Of a DNA stretch of 64,000 nucleotides, positions 24,348 through 51,825 are shown in pieces. Source of the DNA: an uncultured Spirochaetales bacterium (GTDB lineage Bacteria; Spirochaetota; Spirochaetia; SZUA-6). Position numbers and translations under genes: made by a program. The notes beneath the pieces were generated by a model that was not told the origin of the DNA, made no database searches, and was given only the letters and a program-made list of their open reading frames with translations. The stretch lies in assembly GCA_964596425.1 (NCBI GenBank), contig CAZQTC010000023.1, positions 581,367 to 645,366 on the forward strand. Reading direction: 5' to 3'. Within the stretch, counting starts at the first letter, position 1; every line of letters begins with the position of its first letter.

Positions 24348-24357
24348 AAAACTTATC

Positions 24358-32954: not shown

Positions 32955-33973
32955 TTCTCATAAACCCCCTTTAATCCCCCCGTTGTTTTCATATAAATCA
33001 CTGTAAAGAAAAATAGAATAACAAATATAACCAATGCAAAAGCAGCAGCGAATCCATACCTATTGTACTGGAAAGCCGCTCTGAAGAGGGCAGTTACAAG
33101 AATATCCGAGGTTTCAAGCTCGTTCTCATTTATAAAGAAGGGCACATTAAAATTGTTGAACGTCCAAATCGTACCAAGGATAACCGCGGGAGTGAGTACC
33201 GGTTTTAAAAGAGGGAGAGTTATTCGGGTAAATCTTATCCAACCAGGTGCCCCATCTATATCCGCAGCCTCATAGTACTCTCTGGATATACTCTGAAGCC
33301 CTCCCAATAAAATAACCATCATAAAGGGGACCCCCAACCATATATTCGTGATGTTCATCGCAACAAAGTTCCAGAAGGGGTCGGATTTCCACTGAATAGC
33401 AGGTAATCCTATATCACGCAGCATAATATTTAAAAACCCATACTGATAGTGAAACTCTCCCCTCCATGTTAAACATGCTATTACCTGGGGAATGGCCCAT
33501 GGAATTACAAGAATCGTTCTATACAGGGCACGTAATTTCATGGGTCTGTTTAAAAGTATTGCAAGCCCCAACCCCAAAGACACATGAAAACTCACCTGAA
33601 TCACGGTCCAGAGAATCGTTCTAAAAAAGAGGGGAAAAAACATTACCTGCTTTAAAACAGGTTGGGTGAATATCAACACAAAATTGTCTAATCCCTGCTT
33701 GAGACTAAAGGTAGGATGTCTGAAGTGTCTCAAACTCATGTTGCTAAAGGCAAGACGCACCTCGAATCCTATCGGATAAACAACAAGTAAGAGTAATCCA
33801 ACCGCTGCAGGAGCCAGAAGCATTATGGGAAGGGCATACTTGCTCTTTAGAACTCTCTTTAACAAAACATAGAGAATTCCTTCTATTATTAAGGCGCTTC
33901 CTACTATGATAAGTATGGTAAATCCTACCTGACTTAAACTGTCAGATATAACCTCGCTGTTTAAGGTTTCCAT
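32951..33973 (-). CDS. Sugar ABC transporter permease, MalF-like
   Basis: 340 aa; EAA-like motif (EAADIDGAPGWIRFTRITLPL); 4-bp overlap with the downstream permease. Confidence 0.85.
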   Translation of the reverse strand: METLNSEVISDSLSQVGFTILIIVGSALIIEGILYVLLKRVLKSKYALPIMLLAPAAVGLLLLVVYPIGFEVRLAFSNMSLRHFRHPTFSLKQGLDNFVLIFTQPVLKQVMFFPLFFRTILWTVIQVSFHVSLGLGLAILLNRPMKLRALYRTILVIPWAIPQVIACLTWRGEFHYQYGFLNIMLRDIGLPAIQWKSDPFWNFVAMNITNIWLGVPFMMVILLGGLQSISREYYEAADIDGAPGWIRFTRITLPLLKPVLTPAVILGTIWTFNNFNVPFFINENELETSDILVTALFRAAFQYNRYGFAAAFALVIFVILFFFTVIYMKTTGGLKGVYEK

Positions 33974-34105
33974 TTTAATTTCCTAAATAACTAATTTTAC
34001 CTTCCTAATTTAAGGGACAGCGGTTTAGTTTGCACTCCAACATTCACCACTGCCCCTTTTTTTAATTCTCTTCTTAACCCACTACCATAATACCAACAGA
34101 CGATT

Positions 34106-35362
34106 CTATTTCTGAGCCTTTATACAGGCTACTGCAGCAGCTTGCATTGCCTTCGCAGCGGCGGCAGGAGATTTTTTATTAGCGAGTACAGCCTGCATCT
34201 CCGGTTTCATAGCATCCCAATTACAACGCATCTCAAGTACAGTTGGCATCGGAGTACCTACCACCATCTGATCGGCAGAACCCTTCAGTATCGGATCTTC
34301 CTTGATAAGAGGATCGTCAAGAGCAGCCTTTAAAGCGGGGAGGCGCATTAATTTTTTAACCATATCCAACTGGTTCTTCTTATCCGTTGCAAAGTTTATA
34401 AAGGCCACTACAGCCTTAAGTTTGGCACCAGAGAGATCCTTCGGTATCATAAAGAAAACACCACTGGTATATGGTCTGGGCCACAATCCGGTTGAGGAAA
34501 CCTTAGGAATTCTTGCAACCCCAAGTTTATCCCCCAAAGCCTTTTTATAAGCCCCAAGCGACCAGTCACCATTAATTATCATCGCAGCTTTACCCTCCTT
34601 AAAAAGGGTATCTGCACCATTATAATCGCTCTCCGGTGGAATAATTTTGTATTTATACTTCAAATCGTGGAGAAATTGAAGCGTCGCTACCATTTGCGGA
34701 GTATCTAATGTAGGAGTAACCCCATCGGCAGCAAAAACCTTCCCGCCAAAACCACCAAGCCACGGAACAAGCCAGAAGGGCTCTGTTTGGTTCCATACGA
34801 GGCCATAGTGATCGCCATGGGTAAGCTTTTGAGCTATTTTGATCATCTCATCGGTATTCTTTGGCGGATTGGGAACCAAATCTTTATTATAAATTAACAT
34901 CAGGTGATTACCATTAGAGATAGGTACTCCCCAGGTTTTACCGTTTAGCTTTACCGCGGCCACTGCGGAATCGACGTACTTTGAGAGATCGAAAAGTTTA
35001 TCGACAGGCTGAATCAAATCTGCTGCGGTAAATGGCCCTGCATGATCGTTTACCGTCCACAAGAGATCGGGGGGTGAACCGGCAAGACTTGCAGTCTGAA
35101 AATCTTCCCTCAGAGCCTCAACATTCTTATTCACCACCTCAAATGTTACATTTGGATGCTCTGCCGTAAAGGAAGCTGCTAGCGACTTAACGTATTGAAG
35201 GGCATTATCCGCCTCTCCCTCTTTCGTCCAGAGAGTAATTTTTACGGGCGCGGCCTGAGCCTTCTTGCCTGAAGGCGCCCCGGCTTTTTCCTTTGTTCCT
35301 CCGGCCATAACCAAAGCCGAGACAAAGAAAAGCATAACCAGGATGGCAAAAATTTTTTTCAT
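34106..35362 (-). CDS. Sugar ABC transporter substrate-binding lipoprotein (maltose/maltodextrin-binding family)
   Basis: 418 aa; signal peptide with lipobox-like LVMAGG; family-1 solute-binding protein features. Confidence 0.85.
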   Translation of the reverse strand: MKKIFAILVMLFFVSALVMAGGTKEKAGAPSGKKAQAAPVKITLWTKEGEADNALQYVKSLAASFTAEHPNVTFEVVNKNVEALREDFQTASLAGSPPDLLWTVNDHAGPFTAADLIQPVDKLFDLSKYVDSAVAAVKLNGKTWGVPISNGNHLMLIYNKDLVPNPPKNTDEMIKIAQKLTHGDHYGLVWNQTEPFWLVPWLGGFGGKVFAADGVTPTLDTPQMVATLQFLHDLKYKYKIIPPESDYNGADTLFKEGKAAMIINGDWSLGAYKKALGDKLGVARIPKVSSTGLWPRPYTSGVFFMIPKDLSGAKLKAVVAFINFATDKKNQLDMVKKLMRLPALKAALDDPLIKEDPILKGSADQMVVGTPMPTVLEMRCNWDAMKPEMQAVLANKKSPAAAAKAMQAAAVACIKAQK

Positions 35363-35392
35363 CTTTCTCCTCCTTATGTTTTTATACCTGAT

Positions 35393-35464
35393 AAACCGAT
35401 CTTTATCAAAACCGATTCGCTTAACCCATCCGGAGCTAGTTAAATCGGTTTAGTAAATCGGTTT
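35393..35464. promoter_or_regulatory. Nested inverted repeats upstream of the sugar-binding-protein gene; candidate LacI-family operators
   Basis: AAACCGAT at 35393-35400 and 35409-35416; reverse complement ATCGGTTT at 35444-35451 and 35457-35464; 30-100 nt upstream of the malE-like start. Confidence 0.4.
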
Positions 35465-35558
35465 ACATAAAATATCTTAACATAGAAAAGCATCTTGTCA
35501 AGGAAAACTCAAGAAAAACTTAAAAAAATTTCCCCTTAACTAAATTTTGCACAAGTTT

Positions 35559-37616
35559 TTAACTCTGATTAATTACAGGAAGGTAAAATTTTTCCACGTA
35601 CTCCCCAAGCATTCTCCCGATATTAAAGTCTTTGTAAACCGAATAGATCGATTCTTTCATCATACTAATCCATCCTCCGGGCAATCCACTGTTATCCCTC
35701 GTATAGAAAAGCTTGGTGATTGTATTCTCCAACAGCTCGTATATCTGTTTTGCTTCTGCCTTACCCCTCAAGCTGGAATCCATTATTCCTTCACCGCTAG
35801 TTATTGCCCAACCATTTTTTCCGTTATAGCACTCCGGCCACCATCCGTCCAAAACACTCAAATTTAAAACGCCATTTATACCCGCCTTCATTCCGGATGT
35901 TCCCGAAGCCTCCATAGGCTTGAGAGGATTGTTAAGCCAAACATCAACTCCCTTAACCAGATACTGCGCAACAGTCATATCGTAATCTTCAACGAAAAAT
36001 ATCCTATCCTCAAGGCCATACTCACGAGCGTATTCAATAATCACTTTTATTAGGTTTTTCCCTTCTTCATCAGCAGGATGCGCTTTACCTGCAAATATAA
36101 CCTGAACAGGTCTCTCTTGATTACGTAGTATCTCCTTTAAGCGTACTCTATCCTCCAATAGAAGTGTTGCACGTTTGTACGTAGCGAACCGTCTGGCATA
36201 ACCGATAGTCAAGATTTCCGGGTTTAACTTTTGCCCCATCCTTATCTCTAAAAAGTGCAATAGTTTTTCTTTCTCAATTTGATGCGCCCTCCAAATTTTT
36301 TCGTCCGGAATATCAAAAACAGAAGAAAGATCACTGGCATTCGCACCAAAGATAAACCCAGAACCAAGATACTTAACAAATAATTTATAAAGTTCCTCAG
36401 ACATCCAGGAGTGATGAACCCCATTTGTTATTCCCAAAATTGGAATTTTATCCTCTCCTTTCTCGAAAAACAGATTTTTCCACATTTTCTTTGATACCTC
36501 GGCATGAAGTTTCGAAACCCCATTTACCTTAGAAGAAAAACGAATAGCAAGAGCGGGAAGCCAAAAGGGCTCTCTTTTTCTATTTGCCCCCAATTTTACA
36601 AAATCCTCAAAGGGAATCCCAATCGCTTTAATCTTATCCCCCAGATACTTCTTTATCATCTCGAGAGAAAAATTCTCATTTCCTGCCTCAACCGGCGTAT
36701 GTGTTGTAAAAACGGTACTCTCCCTAATCAATCTGGTTGCCTCTTCAAAGGTTATATTAGCATCCCCGAGATAATCCTTTAAGCGCTCAACAATAATGAA
36801 TGCGGAATGACCCTCGTTTAGATGGTAGAGACTCGGCTTAAATCCCATTGCCCGAAGCACCCGATATCCACCAAACCCCAAAACTATCTCCTGTTGAATT
36901 CGTTTATCCCGATCTGCCACGTAAAGATAATCCGTTATGTCCCTATACTCAGGTGGATTCTCATCGGTATCGGTACTTAAAAGCAAGAGTTTAACCCTCC
37001 CTATATTGGCCTCTAACACTTTTATCTTCACGGGAGTACCGAGTATCTTCACCTTTACACTCAGGGGTTTATTATCAACGCCAACAACTTCTCTCAACGG
37101 TAGATCCTCTATCCTATTTTCCTTATAAAACTCCTCTTGTACCCCTTCCGCAGTTATACGTTGAGCAAAATAACCGTAACGATAGAACAATCCAACCCCA
37201 ACGATAGGAATCCCCAAATCCGAGGCTCCTTTAAGATGATCCCCCGATAAGATCCCCAACCCTCCTGAGTAAATCGGAATAGAGCCGTGAAGACCGTACT
37301 CCATAGAAAAGTACGCAATCATTTCATCCTTAAGTAAATCTGAAAAAAGACTCGAACTTTTCACATACTCTCTATATCGAGCGAAAATCCACTCTAACCC
37401 AGAGCTAAACTTCTTATCAGTTACCAGTTCATCCAGACGATCTTTGGCAAGCCTGTTCAAAAACTTAACAGGATTTTCTTTTACCTCGCAGAACAACTCT
37501 CCATCAATCTCGCGAAACAGATTTAATACCTCATAATCCCAAAACGCCCAAAGGTTATAGGCAAGCTGATAAAGCTGTTCTTTTAACTGTTCACCTGTCA
37601 CTATTTCTCTCCTCAT
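35559..37616 (-). CDS. Alpha-glucan (maltodextrin) phosphorylase, GT35 short form
   Basis: 685 aa; GT35 phosphorylase signatures including the PLP-site region (EASGTSGMK). Confidence 0.9.
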   Translation of the reverse strand: MRREIVTGEQLKEQLYQLAYNLWAFWDYEVLNLFREIDGELFCEVKENPVKFLNRLAKDRLDELVTDKKFSSGLEWIFARYREYVKSSSLFSDLLKDEMIAYFSMEYGLHGSIPIYSGGLGILSGDHLKGASDLGIPIVGVGLFYRYGYFAQRITAEGVQEEFYKENRIEDLPLREVVGVDNKPLSVKVKILGTPVKIKVLEANIGRVKLLLLSTDTDENPPEYRDITDYLYVADRDKRIQQEIVLGFGGYRVLRAMGFKPSLYHLNEGHSAFIIVERLKDYLGDANITFEEATRLIRESTVFTTHTPVEAGNENFSLEMIKKYLGDKIKAIGIPFEDFVKLGANRKREPFWLPALAIRFSSKVNGVSKLHAEVSKKMWKNLFFEKGEDKIPILGITNGVHHSWMSEELYKLFVKYLGSGFIFGANASDLSSVFDIPDEKIWRAHQIEKEKLLHFLEIRMGQKLNPEILTIGYARRFATYKRATLLLEDRVRLKEILRNQERPVQVIFAGKAHPADEEGKNLIKVIIEYAREYGLEDRIFFVEDYDMTVAQYLVKGVDVWLNNPLKPMEASGTSGMKAGINGVLNLSVLDGWWPECYNGKNGWAITSGEGIMDSSLRGKAEAKQIYELLENTITKLFYTRDNSGLPGGWISMMKESIYSVYKDFNIGRMLGEYVEKFYLPVINQS

Positions 37617-38842: not shown

Positions 38843-39793
38843 TCATAGCAAAATATCGTTCAAAATTACCTCTCTTCCTCCATTCTCCCTACTCTTTATC
38901 CCGGCAATTATAATCTTCATCATCTCTACCGTTTCTTCAAATGGAAACGGAGGCTTACCGGTTCTTAAGTAACGGATAAAACTCTCCAGTTGAGCTTTAA
39001 ATGCATAAAAAGTATCCTCAAAATCTTTGTAAACCCTCCCCTCCGTTCCCCCAATAAACAAATTACCAAATGCTCCATGCATTTCATTTATGGCGGCTAT
39101 TACTATATCTGCCCCGGAGTGATGCTTTATATGAACAATATTTCGTTCGTAACTCCCCGAGTTTCTAACTGAATAGAAACCCGGTTTTACAATCGGATAA
39201 ACAGCCTCCAGAGCATGAATACCATAACGCTCCCAGCTTTTGGGAGTGGTTATAGTAACGTAATCAACCCTACCTACAAGCTGCCGTAATTTTTCACTAT
39301 TTCTATACTCTTCGAATTCCTTTGCATACCGCATGCAGCTAGAGGAAAGAACCATCTTTCCCTCATCAACCCAACGAACAAACTGTTTAAGATCTCGTTC
39401 ATTATCAGCAAGAGGTTTATCTATAAATACGGGAAGCCCGGCTTCCACAAATATTTTGGCCCTTTCAACATGCTCGTTTCCCCTATCAGTGGGGATAATC
39501 ACCGCATCTACCTCTCCAAGAACATCCTCCGGTCTAGATACAATATTGGGAATAAATGCAGCCTTAGCTACTCTAACCGCGTCTTCTGGATTATCGCACC
39601 ATATGTGAGTTACCATAGCACCTGAGATACCAAGATTCTCTCTGGGCTCTTTTGAAAGATACTCATAAATAACAGGGTAAGGACACTTTTTCATTTCCTC
39701 AGAATTAAAACCCCCATTAATAATTGCACTCCAAGAATACGGGTGTCCATTACCATCAACCATTCCTAACATAGCCAGTTTTATTTCACTCAT
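38843..39793 (-). CDS. Gfo/Idh/MocA-family NAD(P)-dependent oxidoreductase
   Basis: 316 aa; N-terminal Rossmann-like region and Gfo/Idh/MocA C-terminal dimerisation-like region. Confidence 0.7.
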   Translation of the reverse strand: MSEIKLAMLGMVDGNGHPYSWSAIINGGFNSEEMKKCPYPVIYEYLSKEPRENLGISGAMVTHIWCDNPEDAVRVAKAAFIPNIVSRPEDVLGEVDAVIIPTDRGNEHVERAKIFVEAGLPVFIDKPLADNERDLKQFVRWVDEGKMVLSSSCMRYAKEFEEYRNSEKLRQLVGRVDYVTITTPKSWERYGIHALEAVYPIVKPGFYSVRNSGSYERNIVHIKHHSGADIVIAAINEMHGAFGNLFIGGTEGRVYKDFEDTFYAFKAQLESFIRYLRTGKPPFPFEETVEMMKIIIAGIKSRENGGREVILNDILL

Positions 39794-40575
39794 TTTTGTA
39801 CATATCCCCCATCGACCATTATATTTTCACCCGTTATATACTTAGAAGCATCTGAAGCCAGAAAAACTATTGTTCCCTTAATATCGTCATCATCTGCCAT
39901 CCGACCGAGAAATGTCCTATCATTATAGCGTTTTACAAACTGAGGATCCTGATTTGCAAATTTTCCTCCAGGAGACACGGCATTCACACGTACACCCCAT
40001 TTCCCATAGTACGATGCAAGAAAGCGAGTAAGATTGATCCACCCCCCCTTGTGAAAAAAATAGTCCGGCGCACCAGTACCATCCATATCCGTACCCTCAT
40101 AAAGAGTGGGATCTACTCCCACCACCCCCTGAATGGAGACTATATTTATTATGGATCCTTTTCTCCTTTTAGCCATTCTATTCGCCACTTCACGTGTAAG
40201 ATAAAAAGTACCCGTTGCATTAACTTCCATAGAATCTCTCCACTTTCCTATATCATCGTTAAAATTATGCATAGGTCGAAGTACCGAGTTATTCACCAGA
40301 ACATCAACATACGTAAAGTCCCTATAAACAGAGTCAACAAAGCTATCTATCGAATCCGTGCTGGAAAGATCCAACCTGTAACACCATAGTTTCTCATAAC
40401 CAGCTCTTTTAAACTCTTTTCTTGTTTCCTCAAGTTTAGAAAGATTCCTAGAGGCAATAACCACCCGGCATCCCGCCTCTAGTAATGCCTCTGTTATATT
40501 ACGGCCATATAGACCAGCTCCACCTGTAACAATTGCCACACGGTTTTCTATATTGAAAAGTTCAGTTACCTTCAT
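39790..40575 (-). CDS. Short-chain dehydrogenase/reductase (SDR)
   Basis: 261 aa; TGGAGLYG cofactor-binding motif; SDR catalytic tetrad context. Confidence 0.85.
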   Translation of the reverse strand: MKVTELFNIENRVAIVTGGAGLYGRNITEALLEAGCRVVIASRNLSKLEETRKEFKRAGYEKLWCYRLDLSSTDSIDSFVDSVYRDFTYVDVLVNNSVLRPMHNFNDDIGKWRDSMEVNATGTFYLTREVANRMAKRRKGSIINIVSIQGVVGVDPTLYEGTDMDGTGAPDYFFHKGGWINLTRFLASYYGKWGVRVNAVSPGGKFANQDPQFVKRYNDRTFLGRMADDDDIKGTIVFLASDASKYITGENIMVDGGYVQK

Positions 40576-41575
40576 TATCCTTCACCTCCCTGCTAACTTT
40601 TCTTTCATAACGTTCCCTCTCTCCCTTCCAGAAAACAGGATTGACTATACTTGTGGGAACATCTGCAAAGGCAGATTCGATTCGCCCCACTACATCTTCG
40701 CTTAGTTTGCCCTGACTATAGATTGAAAGATTTTCTTTAAATTGTTCCAAAGAATCTACTCCAACAATGGTAGAAGTTATACTATCAACTGTAAACACAT
40801 AGCGTAGAGCAAGTTCTTTAACATCTATTCCCAGATCAGACGCTATCTCGCCTAGTAAACGCTTGTATCCCTTGGCAGCACTCAATTCTGAGGGAACTCT
40901 TTCCTCCTCCATAACAAGAAGTCCCTGTAGGTAAGAACTTCGGGAAAATACTACAATGTCTCTATCCATACCAGTCAATTCATCGAAAAAACCAGAACGT
41001 TTCCATCTCTGATCGAAAATGTTAAACGGTATCTGAAGCACCTCTACTACTGGATCTTGTATCGCATCCAATGCCTCTTTCGGACCATACACTACAGATA
41101 TTCCGAGATGTTTCACCAGTCCGGCTTTCTGTTTTTCCTGCAAAAAATTCCATATCAGTCCATTCCTAAACCCTCGCTGTTCAGGAACATGCAAAAGGTA
41201 TATTGGTATACTATCAATTCCTAACGACTTTAAACTCTGAGTCAGAGCTTTCTCAACCTCGCTTAAAATTTCCCTATCAGATTTCTCCTTATAATTCTTC
41301 GAAATATCCAGCTTCGTACAAATAATGAATCTATCGGCAATACCAAGTTCCCTTAGAGCCATTCCAATACTTTCCTCACTTTTTCCATAGAGCCTGGAGG
41401 TGTCTAAGAGATTCACCCCACTCTCTACTGCCATCTCAAATATTCTTAAAATTTCATTGTACGGTACCCTACCTCTCGGATTATTAATGCCATAATCTAG
41501 TCCAAATTGAACAGTTCCAATTCCCAACCGGGACAATCTAATACCCCAATGTTCGGTACAATTCATAAATTTCAT
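40562..41575 (-). CDS. Aldo/keto reductase family oxidoreductase
   Basis: 337 aa; AKR (alpha/beta)8 signatures (GIGTVQFG...LLDTSRLYG). Confidence 0.85.
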   Translation of the reverse strand: MKFMNCTEHWGIRLSRLGIGTVQFGLDYGINNPRGRVPYNEILRIFEMAVESGVNLLDTSRLYGKSEESIGMALRELGIADRFIICTKLDISKNYKEKSDREILSEVEKALTQSLKSLGIDSIPIYLLHVPEQRGFRNGLIWNFLQEKQKAGLVKHLGISVVYGPKEALDAIQDPVVEVLQIPFNIFDQRWKRSGFFDELTGMDRDIVVFSRSSYLQGLLVMEEERVPSELSAAKGYKRLLGEIASDLGIDVKELALRYVFTVDSITSTIVGVDSLEQFKENLSIYSQGKLSEDVVGRIESAFADVPTSIVNPVFWKGERERYERKVSREVKDNEGN

Positions 41576-41654
41576 ACACTCAAACCTCTGCCTAAAACCT
41601 CACAAATTTAATACATCGCCTACTCAAAATTCTTAAACATCACACCCTTTAACA

Positions 41655-42470
41655 TCACCATATTGTCCATCCACCATCAACAACCAGACACTGCCCTGTA
41701 ATATAGGAGGCCTCATCAGAGGCTAAAAAGACAACAGCACCAGCGATTTCTTGAGGGCTCCCTATTCGTCCGAGAGGGATTTTAGTCTCAAGAGCCTCAA
41801 TAAACCCTCTATCTCTCTGAACATCCCGATTGGGGAAGGCCCCTGGGGCAATTGCATTTACCCTGATTCCATACTTCGCCCACTTCACAGCCAAATACCT
41901 CGTCATTTGAATAACCCCAGCTTTCCCCACTCCATACTCAATAGGGTTAACGACTGTTTCACTACGATAAATCCGAGGATCCGGACTTACTATCCCATAC
42001 ATAGAACTAAAATGAATAATACTTCCCCCATGACCTGTATGGGCATCCCCCTGAACATTCCCCGAAAGATTTTTCCCACTCTGTCCGTCAGAAGCAACCA
42101 TCAACGAGTAACATAATCTGGAAAACAAAAATGCACCTGTTAAATTTACATCTATTCCCCGTCGCCAATCCTCAGCTGTCAGTGCAGAGAAACTCTTTCC
42201 AGCATTACTGAATGTCATATTAACACCAATGTGAATAGAAGAATATTTTTCAAGGATATACCTGCGAAGAGTTTCAATTTCAGATTCCTCGACTATATTA
42301 CACTGAAAGAAATCAAATCTCTTCCCGACACCGCGCAATTTCCAACCCGGCTCGTGCAGATCGACAACTACAACAGTAGCCCCCTGTTCTTCCAGAGCAA
42401 TACAAACGGCTTCGCCTAAATAGCCGGCACCACCAAACACGAGGGCAACTTTTTCGTTCAAATCAAACAT
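41655..42470 (-). CDS. Short-chain dehydrogenase/reductase (SDR)
   Basis: 271 aa; GGAGYLG cofactor motif; SDR fold. Confidence 0.85.
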   Translation of the reverse strand: MFDLNEKVALVFGGAGYLGEAVCIALEEQGATVVVVDLHEPGWKLRGVGKRFDFFQCNIVEESEIETLRRYILEKYSSIHIGVNMTFSNAGKSFSALTAEDWRRGIDVNLTGAFLFSRLCYSLMVASDGQSGKNLSGNVQGDAHTGHGGSIIHFSSMYGIVSPDPRIYRSETVVNPIEYGVGKAGVIQMTRYLAVKWAKYGIRVNAIAPGAFPNRDVQRDRGFIEALETKIPLGRIGSPQEIAGAVVFLASDEASYITGQCLVVDGGWTIW

Positions 42471-42751
42471 TAAACATGCCTCATATCTCTCGAATCACAA
42501 TCTGGATCACCAGTTAAGGCTCTCAATATCAACACTATTAATAGCAAACTGTCAAATTATTTCTGATATTATTTCTTATTTTCATTATTGTCAAGTATCG
42601 AAGCAAATTTCTACTAAATGCCCATATTAAGGGATAACCAGAGCAAATCTTTTCATAACTACTCTTTTTAAATACCTCTACCTACATCAGCAATATTTTG
42701 ATAAAATATGTGTTTCTAAACTATACTCCTATTTTAGAAAGGATCTCCGAT

Positions 42752-44392
42752 ATGAGAGAGACGTACAAAGCCTATACAAAAGACTATATCGAACGAAAAA
42801 CGGGTAAAGGACCCTTTTGGGCACACAAGAAACAGAAAAAAACAAACATTTTCCTCATTACAGTCGACATGCTTCCCCCCCAATTTTACCTAGGTGCTCA
42901 TACAGGGATCAACACCCCCACATTAGACTCACTTCGGAGAGACGGTATATTTTTTTCCAATGCCTTTGCAAGCGCTCCACTATGTGGACCATCACGGGCC
43001 TCCTATCTTACGGGACGATATACCTACATAACCGGAAATAGCGAACGCGCCCACGATGGGCACATGACAGAACTTAGACCTAACGATATTATTTGGCCAG
43101 CATATTTAAAAGCCATAGGATACCACACACGGCATGCAGGGAAATCGCACGTTGGCACCGAAATATTTACTGAGGTATTCAGTGAAAATGATGCTCCATG
43201 GCACAGGTGGTCACCACCATGGTACGATGACGAGGAGTATCTACTCTTCCTCAAACGTAAAAAGTTAAAGAAATTCACGTTTAAAAAGGAAATCAAAGGA
43301 GTGAGCTGGAGTGGCAAAGGGTATGGAAATAGTTATGGGGGATGGTTAGCTGATCAAAATGGGAAACCATTCCCTGAGGAGTCAACATATCCAGCCTTTC
43401 TTGTTGAAAAGGCAATTAACAGCATAGAAAACCGACCCAACCCAGAAAATCCTCTCTATATACAACTCGATTTCTTCGGACCTCATCAGCCCTTTGCAAT
43501 TCCCGGAGGATGGGAGAATAGAGAAACAATTATTCGTGAAAATATGAAACTTCCCCAAAGTTGGGAAGAATGGGCAGCAAACGGATTCAACAGCATTCCC
43601 AATCAACCTCGTGTATACGATATGTACAGAAAAAACTGGGGACTGAAAGAAAGAAAAACATTGATAGACTATCGAGTTGCCAATCAGCTACAATTCGAAC
43701 TAATAGACAAACTCATTGGTAAATACATAGAGTATCTAAAGCAACGTAACTTATACGACGACAGTCTTATTATCTTCATAGCAGATCACGGAGAGATGAA
43801 TGGTGAATGGGGGTGTATTGATAAAGGAGCCTATCTAAATCCTCAGGTTCTACGGGTCCCCATTATACTCAAATTACCCAGAAACTACAAACCAACTGTC
43901 AATAATCTTTCAAAAATAACAGATTCAAGTGGAGTAACATGTGAAACACCCTGTTCACTTCTAGATATTGCCCCGACCGTCCTAGAAATAGCGGGAATCG
44001 AGATACCGGAAAGGTTAGACGGTTTTAGTTTACTCAACACCTTAACCGGCGAAGCGAGACCAAAGAACAAGCCAATACTATTCGATGTGTGGAACCATGT
44101 TGTGCCCAATCCTTCGATTGGTATGATATTCAAATCACAAAATGGAAAACATTACATGTACACGTATAACACAACCCACAATATAGACGAACTCTACGAC
44201 ATTGCCCCCCATTCCGAATTAAAAAACTTGTTTGGAATTCCAGAGTATGAAACCCTATATAGAGAGGCTTTAATTGCTATGAATGAGTGTTTATCTCTCG
44301 ATGAGAGATGGGAAGTGTATAAAGGGTACTTCCAATTAGAAAACGCCGAAAAATTAAACCTACCACCTCAAGATACTCAAAAATTTCTGTAA
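42752..44392 (+). CDS. Sulfatase, formylglycine-dependent Cys-type
   Basis: Active-site motif PLCGPSRASYLTGRY (C-x-P-x-R); start chosen at MRETYKA with an AAAGGA RBS (ORF extends upstream to 42698); ~547 aa. Confidence 0.85.
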   Translation: MRETYKAYTKDYIERKTGKGPFWAHKKQKKTNIFLITVDMLPPQFYLGAHTGINTPTLDSLRRDGIFFSNAFASAPLCGPSRASYLTGRYTYITGNSERAHDGHMTELRPNDIIWPAYLKAIGYHTRHAGKSHVGTEIFTEVFSENDAPWHRWSPPWYDDEEYLLFLKRKKLKKFTFKKEIKGVSWSGKGYGNSYGGWLADQNGKPFPEESTYPAFLVEKAINSIENRPNPENPLYIQLDFFGPHQPFAIPGGWENRETIIRENMKLPQSWEEWAANGFNSIPNQPRVYDMYRKNWGLKERKTLIDYRVANQLQFELIDKLIGKYIEYLKQRNLYDDSLIIFIADHGEMNGEWGCIDKGAYLNPQVLRVPIILKLPRNYKPTVNNLSKITDSSGVTCETPCSLLDIAPTVLEIAGIEIPERLDGFSLLNTLTGEARPKNKPILFDVWNHVVPNPSIGMIFKSQNGKHYMYTYNTTHNIDELYDIAPHSELKNLFGIPEYETLYREALIAMNECLSLDERWEVYKGYFQLENAEKLNLPPQDTQKFL

Positions 44393-44413
44393 AAGAAGAG
44401 GAGGTTATTAATA

Positions 44414-45558
44414 ATGGACAAAGCAAACATTATTTTCATCCTAACAGACCAACAGAGGTGGGACTCTACAGGAGTACATGGTAATCCCTTGAATTTAACT
44501 CCCAATTTCGATTACATAGCTAAAAAGGGAACTCATTTTAAAAATACTTTTACATGCCAGCCACTCTGTGGGCCAGCCCGATCTAGTCTCCAAACAGGAC
44601 TGTACCCCACTAATACGGGAGTATGGAAAAACTCCCTCCCTCTAAAAATGGAAGCAGTAACCCTGGCCCACCTCTTTAACAAAGCAGGTTATAAGACTGG
44701 CTACATAGGTAAAAAGATATTCCATTCATGCTCTTCCTTTCAATTTTTGAACCACATCATCAAAATAACCTTGACGCATTTGTTGCGCCGAGGGGATATG
44801 CTGAGAGATATCATGGAAAATGGATTCCCCCAGATCTCCAATCCCCTTATAGCACTGCTTACTACCAGCTCGGCGGTTACTGGGGAGCTATCAAGAGGAT
44901 AGACGAAGCTCTCGGAAGATTGCTAGATGCATTAACAAGTTTGAATCTATTGGATAAAACAATTCTTTTCTTTACCTCTGATCATGGCAACCACTTTAAA
45001 ACAAGGAACTCCGAATATAAGAGAAGCTGTCATGAGGCTTCTATTCGCATTCCTTTTGCAGCAATAGGACCAGGTTTTAACGGGGGAGGAGAAATAGATA
45101 AACTTGTTAGCCTGATTGATATTCCTCCTACTCTCTTGGAAGCGGCTGGAATAGAAGTACCGAAGTACATGGAAGGGCATTCACTACTACCTCTTATTAG
45201 AAGAGAAAACATAGAATGGCAGGATGATGTGTACATCCAAATTAGTGAAGACAAAGTCTCAAGAGCCATTAGAACTAAGAGATGGAAATATTCCGTCACT
45301 GCCACGGGTGTAGATGGATATAGCCAAGCTGATTCGGATGTATATACAGAGGAATTTCTCTATGATTTGACGGCAGATCCGTACGAACAGATAAACCTTA
45401 TAGATCACCCTGCATATATTAAAGCAAAAGAAATCATGAGAGAACGGCTATTAAAGCGAATGGAAACAATAGAGAAAAAAAGAGCAAAGATACTGCCTTG
45501 TAAACCAAAAGATATTACTGACCAGCGTGTGGTTTTTGAAAGCGAACTCTATGAGTAA
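44414..45558 (+). CDS. Second Cys-type sulfatase, interrupted by a frameshift in an A5 run
   Basis: N-terminal ORF (44414-44902) carries ILTDQQRWDS...PLCGPARSSLQTGLY; the C-terminal sulfatase part continues in another frame (44728-45558). Adding one A to the run at 44709-44713 joins them (…GYIGKKDIPFMLF…). Confidence 0.75.
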
Positions 45559-45568: not shown

Positions 45569-46558
45569 CTATACTCCTAAAATATCAGCCACAAGTCTAC
45601 GGGCGTTTAAATAAAAAATTTTTTCCGTTGCCTCTCTTAACTTTTTATCAGACCCACAATTTCTCCTGAGCGATCGTGTTAGTGCTCGTAGTTCCTCGTA
45701 AACAACCGGGAGAGTAACAGGATTACAATGAGAAAGATTTAAATTACACTGCTCCGATGACAAAAACATCCACGCGTGTCCATAGCTTACATATTTTCCT
45801 CCCTGTATATGAGCAGGAAGATTATCAGAGCCAAACAAAATTCTAGAGACACTAATCTCCGATAGAAGAATATCAAACACATCACTCTCACACACAGCCG
45901 AGGTATCAAAATACACATTTTCCAGTTTAGAGAGATATCCAATAGCCCTTTCAAGAAAATATGGGTTAAACGAACGAGCACAGTGAGCCAACTGCCACTT
46001 TACATTGGGATACTTTTCGGCAAGATATAATAAATCGCGTTTATTCTCCTCATCCAAAGCTCCCTTCTTCTTTGAGAGATGGAGTACTATCAACAGTCCA
46101 TAATAATTTGCAATTCTAACGATACCCTCCGGCAGAAAATCCATAATCCTACATTCATCGATATCCCCAGTTATAGAATAGTACCTATACGGCTTGAAAC
46201 CTACAACTTCATTTTTTTCTACATATTCCGCAAGTTCTCTCTCCTCCATCCCAGGTTTTACAACAATTACCGGGTAGGCATTTTTATATTTTCTCGACTC
46301 TTCAACGGTGTAATTTGCCATTTTGAAGATATCGATTCTTCTAAGTGGCATACCGATCAAAAAGTACGACATTTCTCTACCATGGTAAAGAGTTCTATCC
46401 CATTCTAAAAGTGTTTTAATTCCAAAAGTTTCTCCCCTTTTAACTCCTCCACCACCTGGGGTTTCACTGTCACCATACGAGACATGGGTGTGGGCATCGA
46501 AAATCTTATTGGGTAGAAAATTTTTAAGTTCTTTCCATATCTCTTCTTTTATACTCAT
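45569..46558 (-). CDS. Amidohydrolase-2 family metal-dependent hydrolase (TIM barrel)
   Basis: 329 aa; N-terminal FDAHTHV metal-ligand motif typical of PF04909-type hydrolases/decarboxylases. Confidence 0.7.
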   Translation of the reverse strand: MSIKEEIWKELKNFLPNKIFDAHTHVSYGDSETPGGGGVKRGETFGIKTLLEWDRTLYHGREMSYFLIGMPLRRIDIFKMANYTVEESRKYKNAYPVIVVKPGMEERELAEYVEKNEVVGFKPYRYYSITGDIDECRIMDFLPEGIVRIANYYGLLIVLHLSKKKGALDEENKRDLLYLAEKYPNVKWQLAHCARSFNPYFLERAIGYLSKLENVYFDTSAVCESDVFDILLSEISVSRILFGSDNLPAHIQGGKYVSYGHAWMFLSSEQCNLNLSHCNPVTLPVVYEELRALTRSLRRNCGSDKKLREATEKIFYLNARRLVADILGV

Positions 46559-46695: not shown

Positions 46696-48051
46696 ATGAA
46701 TTCTAAAACCACATTCAACGACGAAATGATCAACAGGAATTCCAATCTTATAGCAAAGGACTTCAAGTGGAATAGAAACGTTCTTCTATCATTTGAATTC
46801 ATGTGGGGAGTAGGACTTCCCTTCTCAACCTATTGGGTCATTGTGCCGGCATACATGGCAGTTATAGGGGCCCCTAAAACCTTGATTGGGGTTGTGACCT
46901 CACTTTATACTATGCTATCACCCCTCCAGTTTATCGTAGCTCATCATCTAGGAGGTAAACCCAAAAAAAAGTGGTTAACACTGGGCTATTCATCCGCTTA
47001 TATACCCTGGTTTATATATAGCTTGCTTATGCTTCTCTTTCCATCAATGCTTACCGGTACACCCAGAATAATTATCTTTTCCTTTATCATGCTAATACTT
47101 GCAGCCTTACTTACAACAACCGATTCACTGTACGGGTCGCTCATCATAGAGAACACCCCACTAACGCGTCGCGGCTCCTTTTACGGATATCGCCTACTGG
47201 CAGTATCACTGGGGATGGGAATATCTGCATTTCTCGAGGATCTCATTATGAAAAGAATCCCATCTCCCACCAATTATCACCTTTCCTTTCTAATAGGTAC
47301 CATTTTAATCTGCATCTCAAGCTTATTCCCCCTACTAACAAAAGAACACGTACTTCACAAGCCAACTGTAGACACAAAAATACGCCCCATAAGGGATAGA
47401 TTTATCGTAAGGATACGCCTATTACTTCGTCGAGTACTAAAAGAACCTAACTACAAAATAACAATCTTCTTCATTCTGTTGATTTTTGCCTCAAAGGAAC
47501 TGAATCCCTTTGTTGTCACTTTCACTCATGATTCCCTCCACATTACAGGCACACAGGTTTTGGTGTTTTCGCTTTTAAGACTCTACGCTGCAGCCTTCTT
47601 TGGAATTCTTATAGGGAAGATCGGAGACAAAACAGGATATCGGGTTGTGGGAATACTTCTAGGATTGTGTCTAAGCATAGCTTTTGCAATGGTAGCGGTT
47701 GCTACCCAGCTTTCTCCTCCGTCAATTGGTCTGATATACCTAGGTTACAGTTTAAACTCTGGGGTCTCCATACTTACATATATGGTTCTTATCAACCTAT
47801 CAGTTGAGATCCTTCATAACATCGAAACCTCTAACCTCATAGCTATTAGTAACATTATAATACTTCCTGCCATAGCAGTAACTCAACCACTAAGTGGTCT
47901 AATTGTCGATCTTACAGGAAGTTATTTCACTGTGTTTGTAATAGGAGTTCTCCTTTCAGGCATCGGAGCCTTTGGTTTCATATTTCTAGTTAGAGAACCA
48001 AGAAAACGAAAAATGTACAGTATAAGAACTACATATAGAAGACTATCCTAA
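46696..48051 (+). CDS. MFS transporter
   Basis: 451 aa, about 12 TM helices. Confidence 0.8.
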   Translation: MNSKTTFNDEMINRNSNLIAKDFKWNRNVLLSFEFMWGVGLPFSTYWVIVPAYMAVIGAPKTLIGVVTSLYTMLSPLQFIVAHHLGGKPKKKWLTLGYSSAYIPWFIYSLLMLLFPSMLTGTPRIIIFSFIMLILAALLTTTDSLYGSLIIENTPLTRRGSFYGYRLLAVSLGMGISAFLEDLIMKRIPSPTNYHLSFLIGTILICISSLFPLLTKEHVLHKPTVDTKIRPIRDRFIVRIRLLLRRVLKEPNYKITIFFILLIFASKELNPFVVTFTHDSLHITGTQVLVFSLLRLYAAAFFGILIGKIGDKTGYRVVGILLGLCLSIAFAMVAVATQLSPPSIGLIYLGYSLNSGVSILTYMVLINLSVEILHNIETSNLIAISNIIILPAIAVTQPLSGLIVDLTGSYFTVFVIGVLLSGIGAFGFIFLVREPRKRKMYSIRTTYRRLS

Positions 48052-48077: not shown

Positions 48078-49817
48078 TTAATTCTCTTTCTCATCTATAT
48101 ATTCTACCCCCAATTTTTCAGTAGTGGAAAAGACCTTTATTTTCCTGGAAAATATAGAATCCATATTCGGAAAATCTTCTCTATAGAAAGAACCCCTAGA
48201 CTCTTTTCTCTCCAAGGAGGCCAAAGTTATTACAGAAGCCAATGTGACCAAATTCAAGAGTTCGTATTTCTTTCTAATATCAAAAGCATCTTTCACGGCC
48301 AGAAATGTAATATTCTCTCGAATTTTCTCAAGCTCTTCCTTAAGCCGTAGAAGACCAGCACCATCTCTTACCACATGTCCATATAACCACATCTTTTCCT
48401 TAAGTTTCTCTCGTAATTCCAAATAATTCCTCTCCCCCTTCCCACTCACAGGAAAAGGAAATAAATCTTGAACCTTAAATATGCTTCCACCATTTCTATT
48501 TAAAACGCCTTCTCTAAAGCTTCTAACTTCCAGGGCAGCATAGTATCCAGCTCTAGTTCCAAAAACTTGTGTAGAGGTCATCATATTTCCTCCAAGCCTA
48601 TCTGCTCCGTGAGGACCTGCTAGAGCCTCTCCGCAGACAAACAAATTCGGAATTTTACTTCTCGTGGTCTCATCTGCTTCAATTCCACCATTAAATGCAT
48701 GTGCGGCATGATCTATTTCCAGTAATTCTTTCGAAATATCTATATGATGTTCATCTTTTAACCAATTTATCCAAACATCGGTTACATCCGTCCACCTATT
48801 CAGTAGCACATCTCTCTCTTTGATATCCCAATAGTTACGCAAATCAACCATTACTCCCCTATGTTCAGAACCATCCCCATTTCTAATCTCTTTAAAAATT
48901 GCTATATCGAAATACCTAGATACTGTCCTGGCAGAGAACGGTCCATGAACAATTCTTTCACCCAATACCAAATCATAATTCACCCCTGGGGGGAGATACC
49001 TCTCAATGAAACGCTCACCTTTTCCATTGAGTATATCTGGACTGTAGTAAAGTGACCGTTCACTAAAAATTAAACGTTTGGGGAAAACTATCCCAAAGAT
49101 GAACTGAATAAATTCCATATTGTAAAGGCCAAGTCCAGCACGCAAAGCCAAACCATAGGTATCTCCGCTAGACTCACCAGAGTTCAAAGAATGTTTATAA
49201 ACGTTAGCCCCTCCACCAGTGGCAAGAATACATGCCTTAGCATTTATTCGAATAAATCGGCCATCAGAGGTAATTCCCACGAGACCTAGAAAGATTTTAT
49301 CTCGAATAATAAAATCCAACACCATAAAGTTCTCAAAGATTTTCGCTTTAGAACTCAAAAGCATCCTGTGGAAAGTGTCTCTTATATTTTTCATATCCAC
49401 GGCCGAGAGTGCACGCTTTTCCCTGCTGAAACATCCAATGATCTGTTCCAATTGCCCATTCCTCTCCTTAAACTGTAATCCCAACTCCTGTAGATCCTTA
49501 ACCCGTGAATATGCCTCTTCAACCAGCACCTTCACCAGGTTGGTATCTGTCATTCCCAATCCCCGATCAATAATTTCGTTGTAATACTTCTCTTTTGAAT
49601 CATCATTGTTTAAACCAGGAACAACAGCCTGCATCCCCCATCCGTGAACAAGGGAGAAAAACGAGGAACCTGAGTTTAAAATTTTTCCTTTCGAAACAAT
49701 AACTATATCGTTGACACCATTTTTTGCAGCTTCATAACAGGATCTAATACCTGCCGCCCCAGCTCCAACTACCACCAAATCGGTATTGATAGTGCTGTCC
49801 ACCTCAAAAGAATACAT
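48078..49817 (-). CDS. FAD-binding oxidoreductase (fumarate reductase/succinate dehydrogenase flavoprotein-like)
   Basis: 579 aa; N-terminal dinucleotide-binding motif VVVGAGAAGIRSCYEAA; flavoprotein-subunit-like regions (ATGGGANVY, GLYNMEFIQF). Confidence 0.75.
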   Translation of the reverse strand: MYSFEVDSTINTDLVVVGAGAAGIRSCYEAAKNGVNDIVIVSKGKILNSGSSFFSLVHGWGMQAVVPGLNNDDSKEKYYNEIIDRGLGMTDTNLVKVLVEEAYSRVKDLQELGLQFKERNGQLEQIIGCFSREKRALSAVDMKNIRDTFHRMLLSSKAKIFENFMVLDFIIRDKIFLGLVGITSDGRFIRINAKACILATGGGANVYKHSLNSGESSGDTYGLALRAGLGLYNMEFIQFIFGIVFPKRLIFSERSLYYSPDILNGKGERFIERYLPPGVNYDLVLGERIVHGPFSARTVSRYFDIAIFKEIRNGDGSEHRGVMVDLRNYWDIKERDVLLNRWTDVTDVWINWLKDEHHIDISKELLEIDHAAHAFNGGIEADETTRSKIPNLFVCGEALAGPHGADRLGGNMMTSTQVFGTRAGYYAALEVRSFREGVLNRNGGSIFKVQDLFPFPVSGKGERNYLELREKLKEKMWLYGHVVRDGAGLLRLKEELEKIRENITFLAVKDAFDIRKKYELLNLVTLASVITLASLERKESRGSFYREDFPNMDSIFSRKIKVFSTTEKLGVEYIDEKEN

Positions 49818-49919: not shown

Positions 49920-50780
49920 CTATCCCTTTAAAGCACCCATTGTTATTCCACTTATAAAGTATTTTTGGAAAAAGAGGAAAATCGCTATCATTGGAACCGC
50001 ACCAAAAGCTGCCCCAGACATCAACCGTCCGTAATCCACAATGAACTCGTTTCTTGCTACTTTAGCAATACCTACCGGCAAGGTTGACATAATTATATCC
50101 TTTGTAATAACAAGTTGCCACATATAATCGTTCCATGTATTTATAAAGTAAAGTATTCCAACTGTTCCAAAGGCAGGGATACTTAGAGGAAGAACAATGC
50201 TAATAAAAATCTTCCACTCTCCGGCGCCATCTATCTTTGCAGAAAGCAACAGATCCTCCGGTATACTCTGCATAAACTGTTTCATAAGAAACAAACCAAA
50301 TGGCCACGCAACCATCGGCAAAAACATTCCTGGGTAGGTATTATACAAGTGGTATTTATTCATAAGGATATACAGAGGTATCATCATAACCTGCTTAGGT
50401 ACCATCATTGCAGTTATTAATACCCAAAAAATTAACTCACGACCTGGAAATTTTTTCTTCCCAAATGCATAACCGGCCATTGAAGCAAAGATCAAAGTCA
50501 AAACCGTAGAAGAACCCGCGACAATAATACTGTTAATAAACCATCGAAGGGCCTTAGTACTGGTAAAAAGTTTCTCGAAGTTATGAAGAGTTAAATGAAC
50601 GGGTAGAAAATTGGGCGGCATCTTAATCGCGAGACTGGAGGGCTCAAAAGCCCCTAAGAACATCCAGTAGAGAGGGAATAGAAAAATAAATGCCAACACA
50701 AAAAGTAATCCAAGAGAGAAATAGAACCATACTTTTTCCACAAGAGTATATTGACGCAGCTCGTTTGTTTGAGTTAACAA
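49920..50780 (-). CDS. Sugar ABC transporter permease
   Basis: 286 aa; 6 TM helices; EAA-like loop (LLSAKIDGAGEWKIFISIVLPL). Confidence 0.85.
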   Translation of the reverse strand: MLTQTNELRQYTLVEKVWFYFSLGLLFVLAFIFLFPLYWMFLGAFEPSSLAIKMPPNFLPVHLTLHNFEKLFTSTKALRWFINSIIVAGSSTVLTLIFASMAGYAFGKKKFPGRELIFWVLITAMMVPKQVMMIPLYILMNKYHLYNTYPGMFLPMVAWPFGLFLMKQFMQSIPEDLLLSAKIDGAGEWKIFISIVLPLSIPAFGTVGILYFINTWNDYMWQLVITKDIIMSTLPVGIAKVARNEFIVDYGRLMSGAAFGAVPMIAIFLFFQKYFISGITMGALKG

Positions 50781-50797
50781 TATTCTCCTCCCTAATC

Positions 50798-51700: not shown

Positions 51701-51787
51701 ATAAGTAAATTATTCCATACCCCGATCATTCACTCTTTCAAATCCACACCTAATTAGTATAATAATGCAGAATAATATACAAAGATT

Positions 51788-51824: not shown

Positions 51825-51825
51825 G

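Follow-up and report, generated by a model that had tools for sequence, protein, structure and literature searches.

In a 64,000-nt stretch of contig CAZQTC010000023.1 from an uncultured Spirochaetales bacterium (assembly GCA_964596425.1; hereafter the window), four oxidoreductase genes on the minus strand, which we call the quartet (a Gfo/Idh/MocA protein, Gfo1; two short-chain dehydrogenases, SDR1 and SDR2; and an aldo/keto reductase, AKR), diverge from two plus-strand sequences with formylglycine-type sulfatase signatures, sulfatase 1 and sulfatase 2. A first-pass annotation had read these genes, together with downstream genes for an amidohydrolase (Amidohydro_2), a major facilitator superfamily (MFS) transporter, a flavin adenine dinucleotide (FAD) flavoprotein and an ATP-binding cassette (ABC) importer, as one module for a sulfated glycan. 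We consider it the best explanation, with a probability of about 0.6, that the region is instead a composite of two unrelated pieces, recently joined in one small uncultured clade of Spirochaetota. The first piece would be the tail of a spirochaete operon for import and desulfation, and the second, the quartet, would be the core of a cassette, here without an aldolase gene in the window. The observation behind the first-pass annotation was partly confirmed, and its interpretation was partly supported.

By sequence, sulfatase 1 is a genuine and intact Cys-type S1 formylglycine sulfatase of an uncharacterised family, leaderless and predicted to be cytoplasmic. Its start is most likely ATG 42752, giving 546 aa, rather than TTG 42698, as in the gene calls of other assemblies. 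PF00884 matched the whole core (E 9.8e-29, profile positions 2 to 301 of 301), with a weak match to PF01663 besides, and the C-terminal subdomain is PF16347 (SGSH_C). In an alignment with 26 homologues, C78, P80, S81 and R82 of the signature C78-G-P-S-R82-A-S-Y-L-T-G were invariant, as were D39, K131, H133, H245, D345, H346 and K358, whose catalytic and metal-binding roles were assigned by motif position. The residue following D39 is Met, not Asp or Gln, the Lys-x-His motif reads GKSH instead of GKWH, and the inserts SPPWYDD, YGGW and FFGPHQPFAIPGG are specific to the family. No hydrophobic leader was found at the N-terminus of either sulfatase, and sulfatase 1 is therefore predicted to be cytoplasmic, as sulfatase 2 formerly would have been. 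At E ≤ 1e-10, 922 homologues were found, with 50 to 78% identity in metagenome-assembled genomes of Spirochaetota and 35 to 45% in Acidobacteriota, Lentisphaerota, KSB3 and others. The AlphaFold model (predicted local distance difference test score, pLDDT, of 86) has the S1 fold and is closest to PsS1_NC and choline sulfatase, with template modelling (TM) scores of 0.64 to 0.78; a search with the model gave 374 PDB matches at E ≤ 0.001, and the 50 listed were S1 sulfatases or related phosphonate monoester hydrolases. The signature, the invariant catalytic columns, the S1 fold and the maturase genes adjoining some homologues (see below) place the protein outside the phosphatase-like, non-sulfatase branch that the first-pass annotation had asked about. 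Since no PDB profile match was closer than E ~1e-37, no specificity can be transferred to it, and an assignment as BetC was rejected (116 bits with the NCBIfam choline-sulfatase model vs a cut-off of 433).

Sulfatase 2, on the other hand, is a pseudogene with an internal deletion of ~227 bp. The sequences with CGPSR and CGPAR motifs (both PF00884) do lie on the plus strand, divergent from the quartet, but the second consists of two out-of-frame fragments, so that only one of the two supposedly active sulfatases is left. The first fragment fits positions 2 to 100 of the Pfam sulfatase profile and stops right after GYIGK, and the second, in another frame (44716/44728-45558), fits positions 178 to 301; profile positions 101 to 177 are missing from the window, in which no uninterrupted frame with the Lys-x-His motif and the central β-sheet was found. 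Intact homologues, found beside sulfatase-1 homologues in other Spirochaetota, have 456 to 486 aa and carry GYIGKWHLGG and, ~80 residues on, PFFLFLSFLEPHHQN, while residues ~101 to 180 are lacking here. Compared with L011 (positions 2363 to 2594), the nearest relative having the region, the window is without ~227 bp, which is not a multiple of three, so that residues are lost and the frame is changed as well. With the W-H of GKWH, the deletion removes the His that is catalytic in the Lys-x-His motif. A Logan assembly made from SRR8542060 has the same junction (99.96% identity, 3 mismatches over 6716 bp), and GCA_054028995.1 has the same breakpoint (10 single-nucleotide polymorphisms [SNPs] over 6716 bp, 99.85% identity). 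At the junction itself, L001 and L004 are identical, and L002 (99.2% identical, 2 mismatches) shares the breakpoint. Because assemblies that differ by SNPs have the junction in common, the lesion is real and not an assembly error. Programmed frameshifting was rejected, since the ~80 missing residues are physically absent and a frame shift cannot restore them. Furthermore, the copy in L011 has been shortened by another internal deletion and L090, a close relative described below, has no copy, which indicates that sulfatase 2 has been lost repeatedly in the clade.

The usual setting of sulfatase 1 was studied in 78 loci from one-genome-per-species contigs, in which neighbouring open reading frames (ORFs) were clustered and homologues of the window proteins were sought by tblastn. 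In ~25 loci, a recurrent Spirochaetota operon was seen, with a LacI gene on the opposite strand followed by genes for a substrate-binding protein, two permeases, sulfatase 1 and, in some cases, a protein we call u327 and sulfatase 2; another subgroup has a ROK protein upstream. The u327 protein (~240 to 330 aa, no Pfam match) is encoded between the two sulfatase genes in L037, L040, L041, L043, L051, L053, L082 and others, and is missing from the window. It was also considered as a member of the BNR_2 family found with the cassette, which would link both systems, and this was rejected (BLASTP E 0.42, no Pfam match for u327). No recurrent glycoside hydrolase stood beside sulfatase 1 in the clustered loci. 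None of 77 sulfatase-1 loci had a homologue of Gfo1, AKR, Amidohydro_2, the MFS transporter or the FAD protein by tblastn, and any SDR at all was seen in only four, at 25 to 32% identity. This context supports a role in which a small sulfated compound would be taken up by an ABC importer and then desulfated in the cytoplasm; a connection with the oxidoreductases finds no support in it.

A gene for an anaerobic sulfatase-maturating enzyme (anSME) lies directly 3' of sulfatase-1 homologues in three Sediminispirochaeta loci (L031, L036, L038). TIGR03942 scored 407 and 422 bits on the radical-SAM/SPASM genes of L036 and L038 (cut-off 349), and L031 has a similar ORF. As a maturase adjoined sulfatase 1 in only these 3 of the 74 loci with flanks, it is normally encoded elsewhere, and its absence from the window, to which the first-pass annotation had pointed, is no puzzle.

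The quartet, judged by its homologues and their neighbours, is the core of a widespread, uncharacterised, phylum-spanning cassette composed of Gfo, an HpcH/HpaI-type aldolase (HpcH), SDR, AKR and a second SDR. Gfo1 has 4853 homologues, with 60 to 68% identity across Paenibacillus, Armatimonadota, Chloroflexota, Planctomycetota, Sumerlaeia and others. The window has the defining traits of this cassette, a short Gfo/Idh/MocA protein of the same orthologous group (at least 60% identity) with SDRs and AKR alongside. A metagenome scan gave 80 loci, and with L090 and two further loci added, 42 were at least 8 kb long; retrieval was seeded by short peptide patterns and kept the best 80 loci per scan, and ORF calling was crude on GC-rich contigs. 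SDR was present in 39 of the 42, HpcH in 30, AKR in 27, and Amidohydro_2 and a class-III aminotransferase (~50% identity) in 15 each. Homologues of SDR1 were 47 to 54% identical in the same 39 of 42 loci, and SDR2 fell into the same cluster as the cassette SDRs. The gene order was Gfo-HpcH/HpaI aldolase-SDR-SDR-AKR in Paenibacillus sp. MBLB4367 (CP176395, positions 1,868,158-1,872,604) and BNR_2-AKR-Gfo-HpcH-SDR on another contig, and HpcH was found in L091 and L092. No sulfatase occurred in the 80 metagenomic loci, and homologues of the sulfatases, the MFS transporter and the FAD protein were found in none of the 42 longer loci except the close relative L090. In the window, tblastn with the HpcH protein of L090 gave no hit over the whole length; the DapA/NanA-like aldolase at 62113-63006 might serve as a substitute.

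Similarity to characterised enzymes was distant. None of ten core proteins reached an equivalog cut-off in NCBIfam. The Gfo1 model (pLDDT 93) had inositol dehydrogenases and GenD2/KanD2 as nearest folds (TM 0.70 to 0.77), and the sequence search against PDB gave one match, at E 0.01. Matches of AKR in PDB were to IolS and L-galactose dehydrogenase (1e-11 to 1e-14) and indicate no specific function, the best NCBIfam models for SDR1 were gluconate 5-dehydrogenase/KduD-like and below their cut-offs, and Amidohydro_2 had neither a PDB match at E ≤ 0.01 nor an NCBIfam relative. Literature searches on the cassette and on spirochaete sulfatases found nothing relevant, and the cassette appears to be undescribed in the searchable open literature.

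Several further genes of the window belong with the cassette rather than with the sulfatases. In 11 loci, Amidohydro_2 and a class-III aminotransferase form a single protein of 770 to 860 aa (Amidohydro_2::Aminotran_3). The N-terminal half of one such fusion (L136:3886-6213) matched the Amidohydro_2 protein of the window over its full length (31% identity, E 2e-40), and the C-terminal half matched the aminotransferase at 53280-54653 (51% identity, E 2e-158). By this Rosetta stone relationship, the two window genes are linked, even though they lie ~6.7 kb apart astride the MFS-FAD-ABC block, and Amidohydro_2, which had been taken for a partner of the sulfatases, goes with the aminotransferase. 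A DegT-type aminotransferase (55 to 58% identity) and a zinc-dependent alcohol dehydrogenase (Zn-ADH; 48 to 50%) are found beside Gfo1 in L107, L126, L148 and L157, and genes for ceramidase-like, NagA-like and dihydrodipicolinate synthase (DHDPS)-like proteins likewise recur beside the cassette. Genes of the URO-D-like family occur in 10 cassette loci, with the copy in L146 60% identical to that of the window. Two small Cys-containing proteins encoded next to Gfo1, h145 and h162, are probably part of the pathway: homologues of h145 (28 to 33% identity), each with a partner ORF of ~155 to 164 aa, stand by the Gfo cassette in L130, L157 and L158, while h162 is 89% identical in L090 and 56% in L156, where it lies beside a Gfo1 homologue. 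As a separate observation, genes for a non-Pyl MttB-family methyltransferase and for URO-D/MtaA-like proteins recur with the cassette (L113, L107, L123, L127, L146, L138, L140), which hints at a demethylation step; of this pair, the window keeps only the URO-D-like gene at 54820-55899, and no corrinoid protein was identified.

The combination of a sulfatase with the cassette was found only in the window and in one close relative, L090 (GCA_054040095.1), which is colinear with positions 33.5 to 49.8 kb of the window at 66 to 89% protein identity. L090 differs in having an HpcH gene (256 aa, ~800 bp extra) between AKR and SDR2, in having no sulfatase 2, and in one more Gfo/Idh/MocA gene, placed ahead of the FAD gene. 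Two more contigs, L174 and L175, have the same MFS-Gfo-FAD-ABC stretch and stop short of the sulfatase position. L088 and L089 no longer have the quartet or Amidohydro_2; their sulfatase-1 orthologue (78% identical) is located in the interval from ispH to mutS2, and of the MFS gene 150 bp from the 3' end are left, directly after sulfatase 1. That sulfatase 1 was kept when the cassette was lost disfavours a functional dependence of the one on the other. On the genomes compared, the juxtaposition of sulfatase and cassette is lineage-specific, recent and local.

Together, these results led us to propose the following scheme. The substrate of sulfatase 1 would most likely be a sulfated sugar of small size, or a small ester resembling it, that an ABC or MFS transporter has taken up. 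After maturation to the formylglycine form by an anSME whose gene lies elsewhere on the genome, the enzyme would strip the sulfate; sulfatase 2, its usual companion, would have been inactivated by the ~227-bp deletion. To this extent the idea of import followed by desulfation in the first-pass annotation is reasonable, as sulfatase 1 is without a signal peptide and ABC sugar importers are the usual neighbours of its family. The partners of the quartet, on the other hand, would be the products of the Amidohydro_2, class-III and DegT-type aminotransferase, Zn-ADH, NagA-, ceramidase-, DapA/NanA- and URO-D-like genes between 45.6 and 63.0 kb. The cassette could then carry out deacylation, transamination of an amine to a ketone, redox between ketone and alcohol, and aldol cleavage, on a substrate resembling an amino or N-acyl sugar. 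Such a substrate is suggested by the fold of Gfo1, which is that of dehydrogenases acting on ring secondary alcohols, in combination with aminotransferases, a deacetylase, amidases, reductases and aldolases as partners; the direction of the chemistry was deduced from the gene families. The NagA-like deacetylase scored 255 bits (TIGR00221, cut-off 225.65). That sulfatase 1 supplies the cassette with its substrate in this clade seems to us less likely than not.

Some points weigh against the composite reading. The nearest solved sulfatases are just ~20% identical to sulfatase 1 (profile E ~1e-37), and the 64-kb window encodes neither an anSME nor a formylglycine-generating enzyme (FGE), as the first-pass annotation had correctly stated: no ORF of at least 100 aa has a CxxxCxxC motif and no Radical_SAM or FGE-sulfatase domain was found in the Pfam listings of the window genes. 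The amino-sugar assignment of the cassette comes from family-level annotation, below equivalog cut-offs for all but NagA. The neighbourhood counts are lower bounds, obtained by tblastn at E ≤ 1e-12 (cassette) or 1e-15 (sulfatase 1) with at least 50% query coverage, and since 12 of the 42 cassette loci are without HpcH, the absence of this gene from the window could be ancestral variation rather than loss. Furthermore, sulfatase 1 stands exactly between two cassette operons in both the window and L090 (sulfatases 75% identical), and such a placement might have been selected so that both are expressed together on a sulfated version of the cassette substrate.

The strongest competing explanation is that sulfatase 1 acts independently of all its neighbours, for example in scavenging sulfur or carbon from a small sulfate ester that enters via another transporter, and owes its position to an accident of rearrangement. 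The family's own canonical ABC operon is absent here, L088 and L089 retain sulfatase 1 alone, and the locus is in flux, with HpcH, sulfatase 2 and the extra Gfo/Idh/MocA gene (Gfo3) each present or absent and two different deletions in sulfatase 2. However, the arrangement is common to the window, L090 and probably L174 and L175 in spite of substantial divergence, and transporters of both the ABC and the MFS type are encoded within 5 kb; we regard this explanation as unlikely, but as one that deserves to be kept in mind.

A larger unit can also be drawn up. Because the genes of the 57 to 63 kb part of the window and homologues of h145 adjoin Gfo1 in L157 and L158, the window from ~37.8 to 63.0 kb can be seen as one version of a super-cluster. 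Its parts would be Gfo/Idh/MocA, HpcH, two SDRs, AKR, the Amidohydro_2::class-III-aminotransferase fusion, a DegT-type aminotransferase with Zn-ADH, NagA-like and ceramidase-like amidases and a NanA-like aldolase, with BNR_2, GH36, MttB and URO-D as accessories; the sulfatases, the MFS transporter and the FAD protein would be clade-specific additions. More speculative, and doubtful in our view, is that such an undescribed super-cluster, found in several phyla, serves an amino, N-acylated or possibly N-methylated deoxy-sugar-like compound, and that it was extended here with a cytoplasmic sulfatase for the sulfated form. The substrate may, for example, be a bacterial di-amino sugar or a glycan unit of the nonulosonic-acid type.

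The module proposed by the first-pass annotation, in which sulfatases desulfate an imported sugar and the oxidoreductases and Amidohydro_2 process the same product, is improbable on the present evidence. The divergent layout with a 281-bp control region in common, the juxtaposition kept in L090 at 66 to 89% protein identity, and a cytoplasmic sulfatase with transporters close by would all fit a dedicated system. However, one of the sulfatases is dead, L088 and L089 keep sulfatase 1 without the quartet, and Amidohydro_2 is tied by fusion to an aminotransferase and not to a sulfatase. Co-evolution of sulfatase and oxidoreductases also finds no support from either side: the 80 cassette loci from metagenomes, L092 and the locus of Paenibacillus were all free of sulfatases, and there was no cassette in the 77 sulfatase-1 loci.

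Very unlikely is that sulfatase 1 is a phosphonate-monoester hydrolase or phosphodiesterase of the alkaline-phosphatase superfamily. Its structural neighbours include 2w8s, 4upk and 2vqr (TM ~0.6 to 0.68), and the weak PF01663 match and GKSH in place of GKWH point the same way, but such hydrolases are themselves S1-family formylglycine enzymes, the top fold and profile matches are carbohydrate and choline sulfatases, and sulfatase 1 has the full CxPxRxxxxTG signature and homologues with an adjoining anSME in three loci. Finally, the idea that two active sulfatases are made after all, the interruption of sulfatase 2 being due to faulty sequencing or assembly or else overcome by recoding, can practically be dismissed: both fragments score well on the sulfatase profile, but the junction is identical in two more assemblies (3 and 10 SNPs away over 6.7 kb) and ~80 residues with the catalytic His of GKWH are physically gone.

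The features of the region are listed in Table 1. The four quartet genes share a strand and have the domains first given for them, although only three of them overlap, AKR and SDR2 being 79 nt apart. The downstream Amidohydro_2, MFS, FAD and ABC genes of the first-pass annotation were all present in the ORF and Pfam listings.

Table 1. Coordinates of the features of the sulfatase and oxidoreductase region (positions of the window)
Feature	Position	Strand	Remarks
h162, small Cys-containing protein, 162 aa	37838-38326	-	Last gene of the minus-strand oxidoreductase operon; no Pfam match
h145, small Cys-containing protein, 145 aa	38328-38765	-	No significant Pfam match (ATC_hydrolase, E 0.17)
Gfo1, short Gfo/Idh/MocA oxidoreductase	38843-39793	-	PF01408, 38.5 bits
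SDR1, classical short-chain dehydrogenase	39790-40575	-	PF13561/PF00106; 4-nt overlap with Gfo1
AKR, aldo/keto reductase	40562-41575	-	PF00248, 128 bits; 14-nt overlap with SDR1
AKR-SDR2 gap, 79 nt	41576-41654		Site of the HpcH/HpaI aldolase gene in the relative L090
SDR2, second short-chain dehydrogenase	41655-42470	-	PF13561, 161.7 bits; first gene of the minus-strand operon
Divergent intergenic region, 281 bp	42471-42751		Between SDR2 and sulfatase 1
Sulfatase 1, 546 aa	42752-44392	+	PF00884 and PF16347
Sulfatase 2 pseudogene, N-terminal fragment	44414-44713	+	Residues 1-100, CGPAR
Sulfatase 2 pseudogene, C-terminal fragment	44714-45558	+	Other frame; ~181-456 of intact homologues
Amidohydro_2 protein	45569-46558	-	PF04909
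MFS transporter	46696-48051	+	PF07690
FrdA/SdhA/TfrA-like FAD flavoprotein	48078-49817	-	PF00890 and PF02910
ABC sugar-type importer	49920-53181	-	BPD_transp_1 x2 (49920-50780, 50798-51700), SBP_bac_1/8 (51826-53181)
Class-III (HemL-like) aminotransferase	53280-54653	-	PF00202
URO-D/MtaA-like protein	54820-55899	+	
Further Gfo/Idh/MocA protein	55908-56930	-	
DegT/PseC-type sugar aminotransferase, Zn-ADH, NagA-like deacetylase, ceramidase-like protein, DapA/NanA-like aldolase	57195-63006	+	

In the divergent gap, two outward-facing sigma-70-like matches were found, each 10/12: one on the minus strand at 42594-42566 (TTGACA-17-TAATAT) and one on the plus strand at 42698-42727 (TTGATA-18-TATACT), just 5' of ATG 42752 and the better of two such matches on its strand. 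In the scan for promoters and terminators from 37.6 to 46.8 kb, counts were at chance level (27 promoter-like matches, where 24.4 ± 5.3 were expected), and the pair is only suggestive as candidate promoters. Horizontal transfer of the sulfatases was not indicated by composition, since their GC content (0.40 to 0.41) equals that of the flanks and the GC skew tracks the coding strand. The FAD protein scored 277 bits with the NCBIfam TfrA model, under the cut-off of 718, and its PDB sequence matches (SdhA, FrdA, NadB) indicate no specific function; no partner subunits are encoded nearby, and only L090, L174 and L175 have the gene next to homologues of the MFS and ABC genes. The MFS transporter is rare and clade-specific, and its 9 homologues at E ≤ 1e-10 are too few to tell whether it is a regular sulfatase partner. 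The sole distant homologue on a long contig (L173:10001-15330, 34% identity) lies beside genes for a lactonase, a Zn-ADH and a sulfotransferase, which we regard as anecdotal.

Elsewhere in the window, an RnfD/NqrB-like gene on the minus strand is split into 20431-21009 (192 aa, PF03116 positions 16 to 189 of 296) and 20100-20456 (118 aa). A frameshift is indicated, as the two halves lie in separate frames with a 26-nt overlap, and the 192-aa product is annotated in ENA assembly L007 as well. After sulfatase 2, this gene, part of an Nqr/Rnf-type cluster at 17110-21009, is the second in the lineage found to be broken. Directly upstream of the sulfatase and oxidoreductase region, and unrelated to it, is a complete minus-strand locus for α-glucan utilisation (23295-37616) with LacI, a GH13 α-amylase, two GH57 proteins (one with Glucodextran_C), an ABC sugar importer and a glucan phosphorylase. 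A 1113-aa ORF without Pfam match (9231-12572, minus strand) is kept beside uvrA in GCA_054028995.1 and a Logan assembly (L006, L008, L009). The GC skew changes sign at ~57000 to 58000 (about -0.14 to +0.12), where the coding strand turns from mostly minus to plus, and may track gene orientation.

As it was flagged, the region carries little weight, consisting of one uncharacterised cytoplasmic S1 sulfatase, one dead copy and generic oxidoreductases. What is new about sulfatase 1 is that it is an S1 member of an uncharacterised family in an ABC-importer setting outside polysaccharide utilization loci (PULs). For this large Spirochaetota family, a canonical operon emerged, with an ABC importer, sulfatase 1, an unknown 327-aa protein, sulfatase 2 and occasionally an anSME. 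The operon suggests that, in anoxic sediments, small sulfate esters are imported and then desulfated in the cytoplasm. The cassette is the more interesting object, being widely conserved, linked by fusion and, as it occurs in cultured Paenibacillus, experimentally testable.

Compared with known systems, sulfatase 1 resembles PsS1_NC (an exo-2S-iota-carrageenan sulfatase, 6pt4) and the choline sulfatase of Ensifer meliloti (6fny, 6g5z) in its fold, CxPxR motif, Lys/His/Asp columns and SGSH_C subdomain; it differs from both in its ~20% identity, GKSH motif, own inserts and lack of a signal peptide. In Bacteroides thetaiotaomicron, the anSME ChuR serves many unlinked sulfatases. Similarly, sulfatase 1 is a Cys-type enzyme in a probable anaerobe, with an anSME beside its homologues in the three Sediminispirochaeta loci, whereas the 64-kb window, unlike anSME-linked loci, has no maturase.

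For the cassette, two types of pathway invite comparison. The non-phosphorylative routes for L-fucose and L-rhamnose, known in Xanthomonas, Burkholderia and Azotobacter, use an AKR or SDR sugar 1-dehydrogenase, an Amidohydro_2 lactonase, an acid-sugar dehydratase and either an HpcH-type keto-deoxy-acid aldolase or an SDR plus a hydrolase. AKR, SDRs and Amidohydro_2 are present in the window, and the HpcH/HpaI aldolase is present in relatives. We nevertheless rejected this route, as no dehydratase of the enolase superfamily, IlvD/Edd or UxaA type was found in the window or among recurrent cassette neighbours, the window has no gene for the aldolase, and the Amidohydro_2::aminotransferase fusion would go unexplained if Amidohydro_2 were a lactonase. 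The other type comprises the pairs of Gfo/Idh/MocA dehydrogenase and DegT aminotransferase in aminoglycoside and kanosamine pathways (GenD2/GenS2, KanD2/KanS2, NtdC/NtdA): the fold of Gfo1 is near GenD2 and KanD2, and the cassette is repeatedly accompanied by aminotransferases of the DegT/PseC type and of class III, by Zn-ADH and by a NagA-like deacetylase. Here the identity is ~16%, however, and the context is catabolic, with importers, aldolases and the glycosidase-like BNR_2 and GH36 proteins in place of nucleotide-sugar or glycosyltransferase genes.

Like the PULs of Bacteroidota, finally, the window holds sulfatase, transport and sugar-processing genes together. The first-pass annotation had called the gene set unlike described PULs, which is true but uninformative for a spirochaete with ABC importers: the Pfam listings of the window genes contained no SusC-like TonB-dependent transporter or SusD-like lipoprotein. 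A secreted or periplasmic sulfatase and a glycoside hydrolase beside the sulfatases are likewise features of PULs that the region does not share; uptake here would run through ABC or MFS transporters, with desulfation predicted to take place in the cytoplasm.

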